Positions 9,598 to 41,142 of a stretch of 64,000 nucleotides of DNA are shown here, one piece after another. The notes under the pieces are model-generated. The model was not told where the DNA came from. It ran no database searches and was given only the letters and a program-made list of their open reading frames with translations. The position numbers and the translations under genes were made by a program. Origin of the DNA: Desulfobacterales bacterium (GTDB lineage Bacteria; Desulfobacterota; Desulfobacteria; Desulfobacterales; SpSt-501); assembly GCA_046496215.1 (NCBI GenBank), contig JAWOHH010000040.1, positions 27,493 to 91,492 of the forward strand. Direction: 5' to 3'. Each line of letters opens with the position of its first letter. Within the stretch, counting starts at the first letter, position 1.

Positions 9598-14955
<5,358 letters not shown>

Positions 14956-31552: not shown

Positions 31553-31749
31553 ACCTCATGGGCACGGCACAAGCCGAAGCAACCGACCTATTCGTAGCAC
31601 GGATGCGGCGGCGGCGGCAACCTTCGGCAGGGTTTGGTGCCGGATCGCCGATATGCTATGGTGGGCCCGGTTTGGATTTCAACCGGCGGGTGTCAGGTTT
31701 TCCTGTCGCTCGCGGTCGAGGCAAGCGGCGGCATGAACGGGGGCGCAGG

Positions 31750-33657
31750 GTGCAAACGCAGTTTCACGACAGCTTGAGAATCGTTCGGGAGGACCTGCCG
31801 CGGCTGGCCGATGTTCTCAAACTCGATGTTGCCGGGGAGATGGGCCCCTGGGCCAAGGCCATCGACACCCGTCTGCTGGCCCGCTTCGATCCGGGGTTCC
31901 CGCTGGTGGCGGCCGTGTGCGGGGGCGGCTCCTCGGGGAAATCCACTTTGTTCAACGCCCTGATCGGCGCCCCCCTCTCGCCCACCGGCGGCCGGGCGGG
32001 CATGAACCGCCGGGTGCTCTTTTCCCTGCCCGCGGCCCTCTCCGGCCGTGAGGAGCTCGTGGCCGGGCTGCTGGACCCCTTCGGCGCGCCCGCGGCCCCG
32101 CTCGAGCAAATCGAGGATCTTCTCGTGCTCGGGGGGCCGTTGTTCGTGCCCACCACCGGTTCCGTCGTTTTGCTGGATACACCTGATTTCGACACGGGTG
32201 CCGGGGGCCGCTACGCCAACCGGGACAGCGCCCGCAGCGCCCTGGAAGCGGCGGACATCCTGATCTACGTTTTCACCAACTCCAACTACAACAACCGCGA
32301 CAACACCGATTTCATCGCCGAAATGCTGACCGGCATCGGCCGGCGCAAGTGCTTTCTCGTCTACCGCGCCTACCCCGGCTTCAGCGAAGGGGAGGTGGTC
32401 GAGCACGCCATGACGGTGGGCCGCCACATTTACGGCGAAGAGGCCGGCCGCTGCGTCCTGGGGATCTACCGCGCCGACGAGGACAACCGCGTTGCGGCCG
32501 GGGCGATCCCGATGGTTTTGCGGCCGGCCCGATCCGGCGATCCGGGGTTTGACGCGGCGCTGCAGGCGATCGACCTGCCGCGGCTGAGGCACGAGCTGCA
32601 CGCCAGCATCGTGGCCGATGCGCTCGGGAAGGCCCAGGGGCTGGCCGCTCGTGCCACGGCCTCCCTGGAGGACCTGAAGCGGTATGGCGCGGCCCTGCGG
32701 GCGGCTCAAGGGTTGTGCCTCCAGGAGGCGCTGAGTTTCTTCCCGATGGATCGGGTGGTGCGGCGCTTCGCCAAAATCTGGTCGGACACCGACCCGCCGG
32801 CAGTCAAGCTGATGCGGCGCACCGGGAGCTTGATCGAGCTGCCCGTGCGGGCCCTGCTGGGGGCGGCCGGGTGGGCTCGGGAAAAGCTCTCCGGCGAACC
32901 GGCCCCGGCCGCACCGGAGGATCAGTTTTCCCGCAAGCTCGAGGAAAACCTCGTGGCGGCGGCGACGTCGCTGAATCATTACCTTCTGAGCCCGCACCTG
33001 TCCCTGCCCATACCCTCCTCCGCTCCCATGGAGATCGAGCGTGCCCAGGCCCCGGGGCAGACTTTCACCGACCCGGTCGCGCCGGTGTCGGTGGCGGCGC
33101 ACCCGGCGGTGTTCCCGGCCCAGGAGCGGCTCCGGCTGCAGGACTTCAGCTCGGCGCTGCAGCGCATTTTAAGCCGAAAGGACGAAATCGGCCGGATCGG
33201 CCATGATATGGACGATGACCTGCGGCAGCTGGCGGACCATTTCCGCAGCCGGATGGGGACCTGGGCCAAAATCAGCCAAACCTTCTGGGCGGCGCTGAAC
33301 GTCCTGCCCGCCACGGTGGCGGTGACCTACGTTTTGTCCACCGGGGACCCGGTGGGTGGGGCCACGATCAAAGTCAAACTGGCCGGGCTCTTCGGCGTGA
33401 AGGACCTCTACGCCCTGGTGGCCATCCCGGTGACCCGCGGCATGAAAAAAGCCGACCGCAGGCAGCTCAAGGCGATGCTGGGGCCGCTGGCCCGGACCTG
33501 GTTGCAAGGCAAGTCCGCCCTGGTGCAGGCACTGTTCGAGGAGGCGCTCTCCGGGGAGATCCTGCGCTCGGTCGAGGACACCGCCGCCGCTGCCGGCCGC
33601 CTGGCAGATTCCCTGGCGGTGGCCCTCGGGCGCGCCGCCACCGGGGGGGACCTATGA
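31750..33657 (+). CDS. Dynamin-like/P-loop GTPase, divergent (paralog 1)
   Basis: G1 is GGGSSGKST and G3-like is LLDTPDFDTG. A later hydrophobic segment is FWAALNVLPATVAVTYVL. Start set to GTG 31750, because the ATG at 31558 would abut the divergent gene. Confidence 0.65.
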   Translation: MQTQFHDSLRIVREDLPRLADVLKLDVAGEMGPWAKAIDTRLLARFDPGFPLVAAVCGGGSSGKSTLFNALIGAPLSPTGGRAGMNRRVLFSLPAALSGREELVAGLLDPFGAPAAPLEQIEDLLVLGGPLFVPTTGSVVLLDTPDFDTGAGGRYANRDSARSALEAADILIYVFTNSNYNNRDNTDFIAEMLTGIGRRKCFLVYRAYPGFSEGEVVEHAMTVGRHIYGEEAGRCVLGIYRADEDNRVAAGAIPMVLRPARSGDPGFDAALQAIDLPRLRHELHASIVADALGKAQGLAARATASLEDLKRYGAALRAAQGLCLQEALSFFPMDRVVRRFAKIWSDTDPPAVKLMRRTGSLIELPVRALLGAAGWAREKLSGEPAPAAPEDQFSRKLEENLVAAATSLNHYLLSPHLSLPIPSSAPMEIERAQAPGQTFTDPVAPVSVAAHPAVFPAQERLRLQDFSSALQRILSRKDEIGRIGHDMDDDLRQLADHFRSRMGTWAKISQTFWAALNVLPATVAVTYVLSTGDPVGGATIKVKLAGLFGVKDLYALVAIPVTRGMKKADRRQLKAMLGPLARTWLQGKSALVQALFEEALSGEILRSVEDTAAAAGRLADSLAVALGRAATGGDL

Positions 33658-35435
33658 AAGCGCTGGAGCGCCAGGGCGCCACCCTCAAAGCCCTGGGACG
33701 GATCGAGGGCTTCACCTTCGAACTGAAACGTTTGAAGGGCGATCTGGGCGCGCTCACCCTCTGGCGACCCGCGGCGGGTCTTTGCCGGCAGTGCGATGAG
33801 GCCCTGCGCATGATCGAAGGAATCGCCGGGCGGCTGGACCGCAGCCTGGTCGTGACGGTCATCGGGCCCTCCGGGTCAGGCAAATCGACCCTGGTGAACG
33901 CCCTGGCGGGGGGCGATGCGATCTCCCCGACCGGGCATCGCCGGCCCACGACCGAGCGGGTCGTGATCTTCGACCGCAACGGAGAGGATGCCGCCGAGCT
34001 TGCCCGGGATCTCGGCGCCGATGCGGCCGCTGTCCGGGCTGCAGAGGGCGGGCGCCTGCCGGAAGGGATTTGCCTGATCGACACGCCGGACACCGACAGC
34101 ATGGCAAACCGGCGCCACCTGCCGATGCTGGAGCGGGCCGTGGCCCATTCGGATGTGCTGATCTGCGTGTTCGACGCCGAGAACCCCAAGCGCCGCGACC
34201 ACGTGGACACCCTGGCCCCGATCGTCAGGCGCTTCGACGGCGAGTCGTTGGTGGTCGTGCTCAACAAGTGCGACCGGCTGGATGAAGTCGAGCTGCAGGA
34301 GAGGATCCTACCGGATTTCTTGGAGTATCTTCGCAGCGCCTGGGGCGGGGCCGCCGCCGGCGTGCTTTGCATCAGCGCCCGCAGCCACCTGCGCGAACCG
34401 GCCTGGGACCCGGCGGCGGGGCCGCGGCACGGGTTCGACCAGTACGCCGGATTGACCCGGATCGTTTTCGGCGAGATGGGCCGCAGCGGGTTTGCGATCG
34501 ACCGGCGGACCGAAAACGCCCGGCGCCTCCATGATGTCGTGCGCGCGGAGCTCTGGCGCGCGCTGGCCGACGACCGCGCGGCCCTGGAAGAGGCGGGGCG
34601 CCGTCTGAGCGACCTGCACGCCGAAGCCGCGGCGGCGGCCTTGCAGGCGCTGCGCAGCGGCGACGTCCGGCTCCCGCCGGGGATGGGGGCTGCGGTCTAC
34701 CGGCAGCTCGCGCAGCGCTGGGTGGGGCCGGTCGGGTGGGTGCTGGCCCTTTGGGCGCGTCTGCTGAGCTTCGGCAGCGGGGTCGGTTCCGTCCTGCGGC
34801 TCCGCCGCCCGCTGTCTCGCAACCGTCAGGTTTCCTTGGAGCGGCGTTCACAGGCAGGGGAAAACGAAGACGGCCGCCTGAAGGCGGCGATCGACGGCTT
34901 CCGCCTGGCGCTGCTGAAGCGTTGGCCGGATGCTGCGGAGATGCTGGTGCGGGGCCGCTTCGACCCGGCGGTGCGGGCGGCCGAAACGGCCGACGCCTGC
35001 GTGGAGGCATTTTCCGGGCCGCTCACCGCGCTCTGGGCGGAGGCCGTCGAAGCGGAAAGCGCCAGGATCCCCTCGACACTCGGCGGGTTCTGGCTCCAAG
35101 CCCTGTTGAATGCCCCGGTGGCCGGCCTGATCGGCTACGTGGGGTGGGTGGCGGTGGTGAGTTTCTTCCGGGGCGACTACCTCGGAGGGGGCTTTTTCGT
35201 GCACGCGTTCTGGTTGATCGGCATCGCCCTTGCGCTCGGCTTTTTCCTGCTGCAGGTGCTCATCCGGCTGTTCCTGAACCCCGCCCGCATCGCCGGGCGC
35301 GCCGCCCGGCGGTGCGGGCGGGGGTTGACGCCCGGGATGCGCGGGCCGGCCACCGAGCTGAGCGCGCAGCTGCTGACCCTGCGGGGGCTGATGGCGGCGC
35401 TCCTCGACCCCACGGAAGGCGTCTATCGGGTCTGA
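33654..35435 (+). CDS. Membrane-anchored dynamin-like GTPase (paralog 2)
   Basis: G1 is GPSGSGKST, G3-like is LIDTPDTD and G4 is LNKCD. Two C-terminal hydrophobic helices. ATGA overlap with the upstream gene. Confidence 0.75.
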   Translation: MKALERQGATLKALGRIEGFTFELKRLKGDLGALTLWRPAAGLCRQCDEALRMIEGIAGRLDRSLVVTVIGPSGSGKSTLVNALAGGDAISPTGHRRPTTERVVIFDRNGEDAAELARDLGADAAAVRAAEGGRLPEGICLIDTPDTDSMANRRHLPMLERAVAHSDVLICVFDAENPKRRDHVDTLAPIVRRFDGESLVVVLNKCDRLDEVELQERILPDFLEYLRSAWGGAAAGVLCISARSHLREPAWDPAAGPRHGFDQYAGLTRIVFGEMGRSGFAIDRRTENARRLHDVVRAELWRALADDRAALEEAGRRLSDLHAEAAAAALQALRSGDVRLPPGMGAAVYRQLAQRWVGPVGWVLALWARLLSFGSGVGSVLRLRRPLSRNRQVSLERRSQAGENEDGRLKAAIDGFRLALLKRWPDAAEMLVRGRFDPAVRAAETADACVEAFSGPLTALWAEAVEAESARIPSTLGGFWLQALLNAPVAGLIGYVGWVAVVSFFRGDYLGGGFFVHAFWLIGIALALGFFLLQVLIRLFLNPARIAGRAARRCGRGLTPGMRGPATELSAQLLTLRGLMAALLDPTEGVYRV

Positions 35436-37477: not shown

Positions 37478-37990
37478 TCAAGCGCGCCCGTCGGGGTTGA
37501 AAATCCCCTCGAACCATTGGATGGAGGCCTCGTCCGCAATTTTCAGGCGCTTGGCGACGGCCGGGGAGAAGACCTTGAAGGTGGCTCTCGCGCGGGCGCA
37601 CACCTCGCCGGAGGCGTCTATCAGGAGCCCCTCGGTCACGGCGTCGTACCTGCCGTTCGTCTGCTTCACCCGCCCCTCGGCCCTCAGTTCATGCCCCACC
37701 CTCGCCGGTTTGACGAATTCGACGTTAATGCTGTGGGTGAGCGCGATTCGTTTCAAGAGGTAGATGGCCGACCAGCTCATGATCTCGTCCAAAATAGTCG
37801 TCAACACCCCGCCGTGGACGATATTGCTCCAGCCGCAAAGATGCTCCGGAACCGTCACGCGGGAATAGACAACCTGCTCGTCGGAGAAAAACCGCATGCG
37901 CAGGCCGGAGGGATTGACCGGGCTGCACCCGAAGCAGTTATGGTTTCCGCTGCGGGGCAGTTCCTTTAGGGGTGAAGGGGGTGTCATCAT
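37478..37990 (-). CDS. PaaI-family hotdog-fold thioesterase with an N-terminal Cys motif
   Basis: NCFGCSPVNP followed by the hotdog core HGGVLTTILDEIMSW. Confidence 0.8.
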   Translation of the reverse strand: MMTPPSPLKELPRSGNHNCFGCSPVNPSGLRMRFFSDEQVVYSRVTVPEHLCGWSNIVHGGVLTTILDEIMSWSAIYLLKRIALTHSINVEFVKPARVGHELRAEGRVKQTNGRYDAVTEGLLIDASGEVCARARATFKVFSPAVAKRLKIADEASIQWFEGIFNPDGRA

Positions 37991-39452
37991 TCGGGTAGAT
38001 GCGGTTGAAAAGGTTCACAGCCATGGCTTCGTCCAGCCTCTGCAGAATTTTGTACTGCTCGAGAGCCCCGGGCGTGTCGCCACGCTTCAGCAGCGCCGCG
38101 CCCATCGCGTGATGCGCAGGGGCGAAATCCGGGTCGACGCGGATGGCCTCGCGGTAGGCCGCCATCTCTTCTCGCGGCCGGCCCAGGTGGCCCATGGCGG
38201 CGCCCATGGCGTGATAGGCCGGTGCGTAGCCCGGGTTGATGCGGATGACGATTTTCTGAGCCTCGATCGCCTCCTGGAAGCGGCCCAACTGGCTGTGGGC
38301 GAGTCCGGCGTTGTAGTGGGCGGGGCCCGCTTCCGGGTTGATCCGGGTGACGGCCTCGAAGGCGTCCTTGCCCTCGGCGTACCGGCCGATCCCCACGTAG
38401 ATCAGCCCCAGGTTGAAATAGGCCGCCTCGAACTGCGGGTTGATGGCGAGCGCCTCCCGGTAGCCGGCAATGGCGTCCTCGTGCCGTCCGATGCGGCTGT
38501 AGAAGTTCGCCAGGCGAAAATGGGCCACCTCGTCCCGGGGGTTGGCCTGCACGGCCTGCCTGAAGGCGGCCGCGGCGTCCTCGGGATGGTCCAGGCCGGC
38601 GTAGCATGAGCCCAAACCGCCCCAGGCCTCGGAGTCGGTCGGATCGGCTTGCGTGGCCTTGAGAAAGTACTCCAACGCCAGCCGGTCCTCGCCCTCGATC
38701 GAGAACTTAAACCCCCGTTGGCACAACTCCTCGGCCACCCGCGGCTTGCTGCCGAGGTGGGTGAAAGCCCACTCGGAAACCGTCATGAGGTTGTCGAAAG
38801 CCCTGAGCGCCGACATCTGCTGCGTCGTCACCGCAAAGTTCAGGTTCTGGCCCTGGACGAACTGGAAGGTGGCGATGCCGAGCACCTGGCCCCTCGCGTT
38901 GACCACCGGGCTGCCGCTGGAGCCCGGCGAGATCGGGGCCGACATTTGAAACACCGGGCCGATGACGGGGACTTCGCGCAGGGAGGAGACGATGCCCTCG
39001 CTCACGGTTTGTTCGAGCCCCATGGGGCTGCCGACCACGACGATGCGCTCGGCGATCTTCGGCAGCCGGTCGCCGACGGGAATCCACGACACTTCCTCCG
39101 GCGGGATGTCCACCTGCAGCTTTAAAAGGTCGGCGGCCTTGTTCTCCGCCAGCACCGCCTTGACGGGATAGGAGTTTCCTTTGGATGTGCGTATATCGGC
39201 CGCGAAGTTGCCGGCGAGCACATGGAAGTTGGTGATCAGATGCCCCCGTGGGCTGACGAAGAACCCGGTTCCGATCCCCGCAATATGGCGCTGCATGTCA
39301 TATGCGATCACCGTGACGACGGCCGGTTGGATTTTTTTGACCAGTCGGGTCAGGTTGGAATCGGCCGCTGCGGGCGCGACCGCCAAGAGCATCATCACCA
39401 TCGCAGCGATCAGTCTGGGGCGTTGGGTCATAAGGGTGCCTGGTTTCATCAT
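37938..39452 (-). CDS. Secreted trypsin-like serine protease (S1C) fused to TPR repeats
   Basis: Signal peptide, TNFHVL (His) and GSSGSPVV (Ser), followed by about 6 TPR repeats (AxxNLGLIY-type). Confidence 0.85.
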   Translation of the reverse strand: MMKPGTLMTQRPRLIAAMVMMLLAVAPAAADSNLTRLVKKIQPAVVTVIAYDMQRHIAGIGTGFFVSPRGHLITNFHVLAGNFAADIRTSKGNSYPVKAVLAENKAADLLKLQVDIPPEEVSWIPVGDRLPKIAERIVVVGSPMGLEQTVSEGIVSSLREVPVIGPVFQMSAPISPGSSGSPVVNARGQVLGIATFQFVQGQNLNFAVTTQQMSALRAFDNLMTVSEWAFTHLGSKPRVAEELCQRGFKFSIEGEDRLALEYFLKATQADPTDSEAWGGLGSCYAGLDHPEDAAAAFRQAVQANPRDEVAHFRLANFYSRIGRHEDAIAGYREALAINPQFEAAYFNLGLIYVGIGRYAEGKDAFEAVTRINPEAGPAHYNAGLAHSQLGRFQEAIEAQKIVIRINPGYAPAYHAMGAAMGHLGRPREEMAAYREAIRVDPDFAPAHHAMGAALLKRGDTPGALEQYKILQRLDEAMAVNLFNRIYPNDDTPFTPKGTAPQRKP

Positions 39453-39574
39453 TGCGTGTCAATATGGAAGAGAATAGTGCCGGAACCGGCATTTTTCAAC
39501 CGGAAGCGCGAAGAGGCGAAAGCCCGGGGCGGCGGGAGCCCCCCCGGGCTTTCCAACGGCCGAGTCGAGGCCGG

Positions 39575-40114
39575 CTATTTCTTCTTGCTGGGTGCGGCTT
39601 TCGCAGGCGGGGGAGTGGGTTTGGGATACTTCTTCAGGTTGGCGACTTTGGTAAAACCGGGCACATGGGCGTAGGACACGGCATGGTAGCTCTCCCCTTT
39701 GTAGAGGATCACCCGGGTGCTGCCGAGCAGCCATGAGGCCCCCTTGGTACCCTCCGATCGGGGCCGCCCGTGGCCCTTGGCAAGAGACGATTTCAGAGCC
39801 TCGAACGTTATCCGGTCGGGATCGAAGAAAACCGTCCCCATGTAGAACTTCTTTTCGTGGAATGCAAACGAAGCGTCCCTGACCGGGATGCCATTCAGGT
39901 TTTTCAGCTTTCCGGAATAGACCGTCTCCTGGGGGATCACATCCGGCACCGCAAGCGTCTGCTCGCTGCAAAGCATGAGCTTTTTGCAATCCCCCTCCGG
40001 CTTTGCCCATTGCAGGCCCGCCAACCCGCCGGGATCGGCTGCTGCGCGCGCATTCCCTGCTGCCAACATCAAAAGAAACCCGATACATGCCAACCAACGT
40101 GCGCTGTGAATCAT
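39575..40114 (-). CDS. Hypothetical secreted protein with a Lys/Pro-rich tail (179 aa)
   Basis: Signal peptide MIHSARWLACIGFLLMLAAGNARA. No recognised domain. It sits between the Hint and protease genes. Confidence 0.6.
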   Translation of the reverse strand: MIHSARWLACIGFLLMLAAGNARAAADPGGLAGLQWAKPEGDCKKLMLCSEQTLAVPDVIPQETVYSGKLKNLNGIPVRDASFAFHEKKFYMGTVFFDPDRITFEALKSSLAKGHGRPRSEGTKGASWLLGSTRVILYKGESYHAVSYAHVPGFTKVANLKKYPKPTPPPAKAAPSKKK

Positions 40115-40172: not shown

Positions 40173-41081
40173 TCACTTGCCACCGCCGCCACCGCCCGTG
40201 TTGTGGACAAGGTAGCTCTCTTTTGCACCCATGACGAAAAAGTCCTGATGCTCATCGACTTGCAGATTGAACACCTCGACCTCGGCGGCGATGAGCTTTT
40301 TGCTGACGAGGGGGGTCCAGCCTCCGGCGGTTTTCAGCTTCATCCCCGGCTCCAGGTCCTTGGCGCGGACCCAACCGGCGTCGGTCAAGAAGCGGTGCAT
40401 GGCGGTTACGCGGACATCCTCGTTCAGCAGAAAATAGTGGTCTTCCCGTGCACGGAAGGTGTTGAGGATCCGGCGTTGGGCAATCTCCATGTTGTTTTCG
40501 TCGTAGGCGAGCAGCGGTTCACCGGGCGTGAGCGCGGCGATGCTTTTGGTTCCTTGGGGAAGAATGACCCGGGTGTCGGGCGTAAAGCAGCCGCCATCGC
40601 CGGCGAATGTGGATTTCGAGCTTTGCGCCATCGCCTGCTCGATCTCCGCCCGCTCGGCTTTCAATGCGGCTGCGTTCTGATGAAGGTTCTGGATTTGGGC
40701 ATCGATGCTCCTCATCTCGTTTATGGCGATCGTCAGGTTGGCGTTGTGCATGCTGACCATCATCCCGGGGTCGATGGACAGCGTTTCACCGAATTCAGGG
40801 GTAACCGGTGCCCTCGGCCCCCCCGTCAACTTGCCCAGTTCTAAAAGAGATTCGGTTCGCTGGGTTTCCATCATCGCCCGGTCGCTCTGCAGCTTTCCGA
40901 TTTGCTGTTCAATCGATGAGAGTTGGGAGTTGATTGCACTCAGCCGGCCGGAACCCGGATTCTCGGCCGGTGGCGTGGGGGCCAGGTTGCCGAGGGAGCT
41001 CACAAAGCATGCTTCGGTGCTCAGGACCACCGCCGAAACCGCAAACAACGACAACACGAACAATGCCAAAAATCGCCGCAT
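40173..41081 (-). CDS. Secreted coiled-coil protein with a C-terminal Hint (Hedgehog/intein-like, BIL-type) autoprocessing domain
   Basis: Signal peptide MRRFLALFVLSLFAVSAVVLS. Hint blocks GGCFTPDTRVILPQG, VTAMHRF and VFNLQVDEHQDFFV..LVHN, then TGGGGGGK. Start at ATG 41081, 5 nt after AGGAGG. Confidence 0.8.
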   Translation of the reverse strand: MRRFLALFVLSLFAVSAVVLSTEACFVSSLGNLAPTPPAENPGSGRLSAINSQLSSIEQQIGKLQSDRAMMETQRTESLLELGKLTGGPRAPVTPEFGETLSIDPGMMVSMHNANLTIAINEMRSIDAQIQNLHQNAAALKAERAEIEQAMAQSSKSTFAGDGGCFTPDTRVILPQGTKSIAALTPGEPLLAYDENNMEIAQRRILNTFRAREDHYFLLNEDVRVTAMHRFLTDAGWVRAKDLEPGMKLKTAGGWTPLVSKKLIAAEVEVFNLQVDEHQDFFVMGAKESYLVHNTGGGGGGK

Positions 41082-41125
41082 ACGTTCCTCCTGTTGAGTT
41101 TGGTGCATCGACCGGGGTGAGTCTC

Positions 41126-41142
41126 TTCAATTTATATGCCAG
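41126..41142 (-). promoter_or_regulatory. Promoter-like 17-mer CTGGCATATAAATTGAA upstream of the Hint operon
   Basis: Minus-strand TGGCAT-N5-TTGAA (sigma-54-like with a GA at -12). It could instead be read as a TATAAA -10 box. A near-identical 17-mer lies at 42637-42653 (+). Confidence 0.35.

Follow-up and report, generated by a model that had tools for sequence, protein, structure and literature searches.

A bacterial intein-like Hint domain with intein-type residues is fixed at the C-terminus of a family of probable lipoproteins of Desulfobacterales

Introduction

The A-type bacterial intein-like (BIL) domains, represented by BIL4 of Clostridium thermocellum (PDB 2LWY; Pfam family PF07591), possess a catalytic cysteine at the first position (Cys1), a TxxH motif, a block F asparagine (VFN/VYN) and a terminal His-Asn pair. 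They are found in secreted, non-essential proteins and have no homing endonuclease. The described BIL domains reside within secreted proteins that are large and variable, or precede toxin domains, and are without a nucleophile at the position following the Asn (+1), and hence they mostly cleave at the N- and C-terminal sides (PMC7664689, PMC7765530). A single mutation is sufficient to turn BIL domains into efficient splicers (PMC7664689). Here we describe an A-type BIL domain that ends a small exported protein encoded on the minus strand (40173..41081) of a 64,000-nucleotide stretch of a Desulfobacterales genome (GCA_046496215.1, contig JAWOHH010000040.1, positions 27,493 to 91,492), which is called the window below and in whose coordinates all positions are given.

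Three other described systems are close to this gene. Class 1 mini-inteins (Ssp and Npu DnaB, gp41-1) have the full catalytic set in approximately 130 amino acids (aa), without an endonuclease, and are sporadically distributed in conserved sites of essential cytoplasmic proteins. The BIL2 domain of the Tetrahymena thermophila BUBL protein (6Y75/6TMM), a eukaryotic and cytoplasmic protein with ubiquitin-like flanks, is retained for a host function, namely the conjugation of its N-extein to a lysine through a thioester (PMC8616854). The Hedgehog Hint domain (HhC/Hog) is located at the end of a precursor and processes a secreted N-domain bearing an N-terminal lipid, and has a G-C-F motif at its cleavage site.

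The domain in the window shares the listed active-site motifs with the A-type BIL domains; unlike them, it is always followed by Thr, Ser or Cys, its host is a probable lipoprotein of about 300 aa, and the arrangement is fixed in the whole family. It has the size and catalytic set of the class 1 mini-inteins and differs from them in being exported, in having a Gly-rich miniature C-extein and in being present in all family members, where it shows greater conservation than the host domain, with which it co-diverges. Its identity with BUBL BIL2 is 19–20%; unlike in BUBL, the C-extein has no lysine other than its last residue, and position +1 carries a nucleophilic hydroxyl or thiol. It shares the terminal position and the G-C-F motif with Hedgehog; the His-Asn pair and the +1 nucleophile, which Hedgehog does not have, are conserved here, whereas the 8-aa tail leaves no sterol-recognition region. 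No description of this Hint-lipoprotein family was found in the literature searched.

Results

The C-terminal domain is an A-type BIL/PT-HINT domain

The longest open reading frame (ORF) at the locus (40173..41108, minus strand, 311 aa) was used for the numbering of residues. An earlier note, made from the letters of the window and a list of its ORFs, had claimed a secreted coiled-coil protein that ends in a Hint module with an eight-residue C-extein. All the motifs that it quoted (the Cys site, TxxH, the C-terminal blocks and the tail) were located in the translation, and the architecture of an export signal, a helical domain, a terminal Hint and an 8-aa Gly-rich C-extein was borne out. The Hint domain extends from Cys174 to Asn303 (130 aa; 40200..40589, minus strand) and is supported by PF07591 as well as by the profile and fold matches to 2LWY. 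The match to PF07591 (PT-HINT) spans aa 185–303 and scores 41.8 bits, above the curated cutoff of 27.7. The matches to the Pfam families Intein_splicing, Hint (Hedgehog) and Hint_2 were all below their own cutoffs. The resemblance to Hedgehog that the note had seen did not hold: the match to PF01079 is limited to aa 163–209 and, at 21.2 bits, falls short of the cutoff of 29.7.

An AlphaFold2 model of the protein was built from a 28-sequence alignment. It shows a pair of helices with a Gly/Pro-rich loop between them, a compact beta-rich Hint domain and a disordered tail, at a mean predicted local distance difference test (pLDDT) score of 82 (mostly 78–98 in the helix blocks and 86–95 in the Hint blocks). 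The comparison of the model with the PDB using Foldseek placed the C. thermocellum BIL domain 2LWY at the top (template modeling (TM) score 0.86, root-mean-square deviation 1.8 Å, 28% identity), followed by Tetrahymena BUBL BIL2 and then by the DnaB, gp41-1 and RecA mini-inteins (TM 0.75–0.83 for the class 1 mini-inteins DnaB and gp41-1). All 38 matches with E ≤ 1e-3 were inteins or BILs. In a profile search of PDB sequences, 2LWY was also the best match (E 2e-11). As both the fold and the profile comparison put 2LWY first, we conclude that the domain is A-type BIL/PT-HINT by descent and not of the Hedgehog type.

The active-site residues are invariant in the 28-sequence alignment. Cys1 is Cys174 (40587..40589, minus strand), within the sequence GG-CFTPDT; Thr235 and His238 belong to the block B motif TAMH (TxxH; 40395..40406, minus strand); the C-terminal motif VFNLQVDEHQDFFV was confirmed in the translation; and the LVHN motif ends with His302 and Asn303 (40200..40205, minus strand). 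Together with the Thr, Ser or Cys at +1, this completes the canonical residue set of class 1 inteins. The domain contains no endonuclease.

The +1 residue and the Gly-Lys tail are constrained

The C-extein TGGGGGGK (40176..40199, minus strand) consists of the +1 residue Thr304, a spacer of six glycines and the C-terminal Lys311, and is followed by the stop codon (40173..40175, minus strand). Of the 42 distinct sequences of the family, 30 have Thr, 8 have Ser and 4 have Cys at +1. At least eight independent changes at this position were counted by Fitch parsimony on a neighbour-joining tree, and not one of them led to a non-nucleophile. A single base change in a Thr codon can give Ala, Pro, Asn or Ile, yet none of these appears at +1.

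Twelve plasmid-borne PT-HINT toxins served as the control set. Their +1 residues are Ala (4), Cys (3) and Ser, Gly, Gln, Lys and Asp (one each), so that a nucleophile is present in 4 of the 12. These toxins are longer than 1,000 aa (annotated coding sequences span ~3–22 kb) and continue for 90–270 aa beyond His-Asn, versus about 300 aa in total and only 5–11 residues beyond the Hint in the family proteins. In the Streptomyces plasmid toxins L027, L035 and L037, His-Asn is followed by Cys-Gly-Gly or Cys-Gly-Pro; because of them, the general statement in the literature that PT-HINT domains have no +1 nucleophile does not apply to all of these domains. It should also be noted that an unrelated ORF of ~780 aa on the chromosome of Singulisphaera sp. 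Ch08 (L021:4123-6468) has a PT-HINT domain at aa 634–759 and a tail of ~22 residues after it (...LVHDN followed by TIPRL...). Short-tailed terminal Hint domains therefore also exist outside the Desulfobacterales family.

At every locus the tail has the form of Thr, Ser or Cys, a Gly-rich run (3–8 Gly with an occasional single Ala or Ser), Lys and the stop codon. At L007, L013 and L017, which come from long-read metagenome-assembled genomes (MAGs), the reading frame runs past the Gly codons, and a one-base shift in the GGN run restores the GK-stop end. These odd ends are probably homopolymer indel errors, though they might instead reflect real slippage in the run. The Gly codons (GGC, GGT, GGG and GGA) vary freely among the loci, which indicates selection on the tail peptide and not on a DNA repeat. 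The Desulfobacterales family bears naturally, and retains, the +1 "mutation" of the splicing type.

A remote homologue without a Hint lines up with the predicted ligated exteins

One remote homologue of the N-terminal domain has no Hint. P0045 is a complete ORF of 173 aa (L022:459-980; ENA ERZ27283508, k119_1267098) from an organism of lower GC content. Its contig of 1,086 bp holds its own stop codon and then AT-rich non-coding DNA, with no Hint in any frame. The relationship with the N-domain was detected by both hmmsearch (E 1.2e-6) and hhalign (probability 97%, E 1e-10, 139 columns), and an LAGC lipobox, both helices and the motif M-H-x-x-N are found in the protein. Its C-terminal sequence is ...PDGGDGGGGGGGGGSC, with the poly-Gly tail GGDGGGGGGGGGSC. 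In the MAFFT alignment, P0045 has a single gap that lies exactly over the Hint, and its poly-Gly end aligns with the C-extein of the family. P0045 thus looks like the predicted ligated exteins and is, among the comparative data, the best argument for a mature protein that would consist of the N-domain and the Gly tail. A metagenome scan seeded with P0045 gave no further Hint-less relatives. Meanwhile, the scan with the N-domain added four loci, each with the Hint, the tail and a downstream partner gene.

The Hint is fixed in a small family of Desulfobacterales

The family was searched for in 5.8 billion sequence clusters, in 1.84 billion cluster representatives (with a profile of the N-domain alone) and in 185,579 species genomes. 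The first search gave 30 relatives, 27 of them ~295–320 aa long with the same architecture and 3 shorter fragments; one of the relatives is named by NCBI a "polymorphic toxin-type HINT domain-containing protein". The 18 matches of the N-domain profile were members of the same family, fragments of them and two spurious repeat proteins; P0045 was the only Hint-less homologue that this search gave. The genome search gave 11 loci. The 10 MAGs that contain them bear the labels Desulfobacterales, Desulfatibacillum or "delta proteobacterium". The family is small and restricted to MAGs of Desulfobacterales and metagenomes, its hosts being Desulfatibacillum-like sulfate reducers.

The Hint is present at all 21 distinct loci and in ~45 clusters. 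The mean pairwise identity is 64% for the Hint versus 52% for the N-domain, the Hint being the more similar in 98% of the pairs, and the distance matrices of the two domains correlate (r = 0.84). That the Hint is the more conserved domain and that the two domains co-diverge point to their co-inheritance, by vertical descent under constraint. The pattern of a selfish intein was not seen here, for the domain is not sporadically present and its insertion point is a Gly-rich linker. The Hint looks like a fixed, non-mobile domain, domesticated rather than selfish.

Synteny was found between the window and two other loci, L001 from a Desulfobacterales MAG and L005 on a metagenome contig; their shared genes include those for a radical-SAM/B12 protein, DUF4124, LOG, Fe-ADH and a pair of dynamin-like GTPases. 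The adjacent genes of this pair (699 and 593 aa; 31558..35435, plus strand, in the window) also lie near the Hint gene in L001 and L005. The low GC content of 50–55% that the earlier note had ascribed to the Hint gene was overstated: the gene has 59% GC (0.74 at third codon positions) in a window of 64.5% GC, and only the intergenic stretch upstream of it falls to 49–52%. A foreign origin deduced from low GC is not supported, given these values and the synteny with Desulfobacterales and Desulfatibacillum MAGs.

The N-terminal part indicates an envelope lipoprotein

The true start of the protein is Met10, at 41081 (also the end coordinate in the earlier note), because the Shine-Dalgarno sequence AGGAGG (41087..41092, minus strand; read from the sequence) lies 5 nt upstream of its codon and every homologue begins there. 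AGGAG-like sites are found at an equal distance from the start in most of the homologous loci. A sigma-54-like element, TGGCATATAAATTGAAG (41125..41141, minus strand), is situated ~60 nt upstream of the Met10 codon. It is weak in the window (TGGCAT-N5-TTGAA); locus L003 has a better match, TGGCATCCGTTTTGCTT, and most other loci have none, so that a conserved sigma-54 promoter was rejected. In the consensus scans for promoters and terminators, the site counts were not above the shuffled expectation.

The signal peptide MRRFLALFVLSLFAVSAVVLSTEA (aa 10–33; 41010..41081, minus strand) contains a hydrophobic stretch that was found in each aligned homologue. It is followed by Cys34 (41007..41009, minus strand), probably the lipid-modified cysteine of a lipobox, which is invariant in all 28 aligned sequences. 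A lipobox has the form [LVI..][AST..][GAS]-C where the signal peptide ends. When 35 family members of 250 aa or more were checked against a PROSITE-like lipobox rule, 30 agreed with it. In the window the sequence is STEAC, and the Glu at position -2 makes this copy, like its relative of 94% identity, fail the strict rule. The secretion signal of the earlier note is thus retained as an export signal and refined to a probable lipoprotein signal, and the protein of the window is probably an envelope lipoprotein, as judged from its sequence and those of its homologues.

The N-extein (aa 35–173, 139 aa; 40590..41006, minus strand), delimited by the AlphaFold2 model and conservation, comprises a disordered linker, helix 1 (aa 51–95; 40824..40958, minus strand), a conserved Gly/Pro loop (aa 96–113; 40770..40823, minus strand), helix 2 (aa 114–163; 40620..40769, minus strand) with the invariant motif M-H-N-x-N, and a linker with a Gly-Gly end. 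The region that had been read as coiled-coil-like is therefore helical, and the model predicts two long helices in it. The last residues of the N-extein are small (GG, GA or GS). The N-domain had no match in Pfam and only weak, coiled-coil matches among PDB sequences (best E 0.005), and outside the Hint Foldseek found low-probability helical hairpins only (MacA, YbjP, colicin).

A secreted partner is encoded downstream

A gene for a small secreted protein is always situated 11–90 nt downstream of the Hint gene on the same strand, whereas the flanking genes vary by lineage. In the window this partner gene (39575..40114, minus strand; 179 aa) begins 58 nt past the stop codon of the Hint gene and is co-oriented with it. 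Its product begins with a Sec signal peptide, and the mature N-terminus has the conserved form A-A/S-D-P-G-G; it further contains a CxxxxxC motif and an alpha/beta domain, and its Pro-rich tail ends with KKK. In the source data, the partner is called from an internal Met (P0033, 133 aa, 100% identical). The real form is that of 179 aa, because the signal peptide and the A-A/S-D-P-G-G sequence of the homologues lie upstream of this Met.

Partners of this type (type 1) were found at 14 loci. They have 170–183 aa, the A-A/S-D-P-G-G sequence, CxxxxxC and a Pro-rich tail with Lys at the end, and they form 17 clusters, a family as small as that of the Hint proteins. The AlphaFold2 model of the type-1 partner (pLDDT 88, predicted TM score 0.76) had no fold match in the PDB (best Foldseek E 0.011, TM ≤ 0.45), and no match was found among PDB sequences or in Pfam or PADLOC. 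Seven loci (L007, L013-L017 and L026) have instead a non-homologous secreted partner of ~162 aa (type 2), which goes with one subclade of the lipoproteins, has no poly-Lys tail and shows a similarity to IalB/DUF1176 at sub-threshold level only. Homology between the two types was rejected, since hhalign gave a probability of 2.5%.

A terminator-like hairpin with a T-run (39478..39491, minus strand) lies 84 nt past the stop codon of the partner gene and is possibly the end of a two-gene unit; the consensus scan that gave it is weak (6 sites found versus 4.6 in shuffled sequences). Located 122 nt downstream of the two genes is a gene (37938..39452, minus strand) encoding a secreted trypsin-like serine protease with six or so tetratricopeptide repeats, which is not kept beside the cassette at other loci. 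Elsewhere in the window, an ORF of 1,785 aa (9598..14955, minus strand) combines UvrA interaction, DNA-binding and several ABC ATPase domains and is about twice the normal length of UvrA.

Discussion

The Desulfobacterales proteins combine the BIL fold and a conserved catalytic set with a constrained +1 residue and Gly-Lys tail, a fixed Hint and a two-gene cassette. What sets the family apart is a BIL-type Hint that has intein-type residues, is fixed at the C-terminus of a small probable lipoprotein, and comes with a Gly-Lys mini-extein and a partner gene that are both conserved.

We propose that this domain is a domesticated A-type BIL/PT-HINT domain that acts as a class 1 mini-intein, splicing in cis at the C-terminus of an envelope lipoprotein in the periplasm, a proposal that in our estimate stands just on the probable side. 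The precursor would be exported through the Sec pathway and, to judge from the lipobox, lipidated at Cys34, and the Hint would then fold in the periplasm. Cys174 would carry out an N-S acyl shift at the Gly173–Cys174 bond, transesterification would move the thioester onto the Thr304 side chain at +1, cyclisation of Asn303 would free the 130-aa Hint, and an O-N shift would give a normal peptide bond. The predicted mature product is a lipoprotein of 148 aa, consisting of the lipid-modified Cys, the two-helix hairpin and the end ...GDGG-T-GGGGGG-K-COOH, along with the free Hint. For residues 35–311, the computed masses are 30,124 Da for the precursor, 15,352 Da for the ligated product and ~14,790 Da for the Hint (-17 Da as the succinimide). 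Cleavage would give instead an N-cleaved product of 14,781 Da and the Hint with the tail of 15,361 Da. The predicted peptide across the Gly173–Thr304 junction of the ligated product is STFAGDGGTGGGGGGK (computed monoisotopic mass 1281.56, [M+2H]2+ 641.79).

Splicing onto the Gly-rich tail had been one of several chemistries listed in the earlier note, and it is favoured by the +1 nucleophile and the collinear Hint-less homologue. We infer that the protein is mainly spliced, not cleaved, and that this takes place in the periplasm. The preference follows from splicing being the only scheme that uses Cys1, TxxH, His-Asn, the +1 nucleophile and the retained tail, and that fits the Hint-less homologue. 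We speculate that the Hint provides a one-shot maturation step, possibly gated by thiols or redox state. Several points weigh against this proposal. The splicing chemistry in this family is deduced from comparison and models, and the characterised BIL domains yield mostly cleavage products (PMC7664689, PMC7765530). The ligated product could be encoded without a Hint, so that there is no obvious reason for retaining a splicing domain. The thioester step needs Cys174 to be reduced in the periplasm, and the Cys pair of the partner suggests that disulfides are formed there. The invariant terminal Lys is left unexplained by splicing alone. Finally, P0045 is known from one short metagenomic contig, has 24% identity and ends with Cys, not Lys.

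That the domain is of the A-type BIL kind by both sequence and fold, and that Thr is a weaker +1 nucleophile than Cys, would suit autoproteolysis at one or both ends without ligation, the Hint being a removable cap or pro-domain. Such domains mainly cleave (PMC7664689, PMC7765530), and we consider this outcome unlikely for the present family without dismissing it. It leaves the strict retention of Thr, Ser or Cys at +1 through at least eight substitutions unexplained, gives no reason for conserving a Gly-rich tail with a terminal Lys if that tail is to be discarded, and does not account for the Hint-less homologue, in which the poly-Gly tail is still fused to the N-domain. The terminal Lys, for which plain splicing offers no explanation, is instead a point in favour of an acyl transfer similar to that of Hedgehog or BUBL. 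In such a reaction, the Cys174 thioester would be attacked by a nucleophile other than Thr304, giving an isopeptide- or lipid-linked N-domain; the candidate acceptors are the epsilon-amine of Lys311 reached via the Gly spacer, a Lys of the KKK end of the partner, an amine of peptidoglycan or lipid, and a lipid hydroxyl. BUBL BIL2, the second-best fold match, does form a Lys-epsilon isopeptide, by which the N-extein is conjugated to other proteins without ATP (PMC8616854). The N-exteins ending with GG, GA or GS resemble those of Hedgehog and ubiquitin-like proteins, and a secreted partner, with a flexible Lys-rich tail in type 1, is always co-encoded. However, an external nucleophile requires neither Asn303 nor the +1 residue, both of which are strictly conserved; the type-2 partners, which share no homology with type 1, have no poly-Lys tail; there is no sterol- or lipid-recognition region beyond the Hint; and the last residue of the Hint-less homologue is Cys. 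Taken together, we regard such a transfer as rather unlikely.

The NCBI name of one homologue, along with a downstream gene that is small and of two unrelated types, as immunity genes are, would also be compatible with a decayed polymorphic toxin, namely a PT-HINT protein that has lost its toxin domain and kept a leftover immunity gene. This explanation is disfavoured and very improbable. Remnants would decay and vary, whereas the 42 sequences are constant (~300 aa, the same tail and intact catalytic residues), and all 12 control toxins are longer than 1,000 aa with 90–270 aa beyond His-Asn. Signal peptides, which the partners of both types have, are unusual for immunity proteins against cytoplasmic toxins, and no immunity family, PADLOC or significant Pfam match was found for the partners. 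A truncated polymorphic toxin was thus rejected, on conservation and on the comparison with the 12 toxins.

A broader and quite unlikely extension of splicing and acyl transfer is that the Hint drives an ATP-independent covalent ligation in the envelope. The thioester on a membrane-anchored helical hairpin would install, or react with, the Gly-spaced Lys, so that the lipoprotein could be joined to peptidoglycan, the partner or a lipid, possibly under redox gating of Cys174 in these strict anaerobes. Braun's lipoprotein Lpp is a small helical lipoprotein with a C-terminal Lys, and the likeness of the predicted mature product to it is a lead only. No LPP match was found in Pfam at E ≤ 1, there is no sequence similarity, and, unlike in Lpp, the antiparallel hairpin predicted by the model would set both termini at the same end.

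It has long been asked whether intein-type splicing domains can serve the host or are merely selfish. For this question the present family is a clean test case, with a fixed and vertically inherited Hint that has all the splicing residues, an exported lipoprotein as the host, and a conserved mini C-extein and partner. If the splicing is true, the family would provide a natural domain of 130 aa for which a C-extein of only 5–11 residues is sufficient and which probably acts outside the cytoplasm, and this would be useful for protein engineering. If the N-domain is transferred, it would be a bacterial counterpart of the Hedgehog or BUBL chemistry, and if the envelope ligation is true, it would be the first natural constructive use of protein splicing or ligation in the bacterial periplasm. 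The domain looks like a rare domesticated protein-splicing module of Desulfobacterales and not like a toxin-release device.

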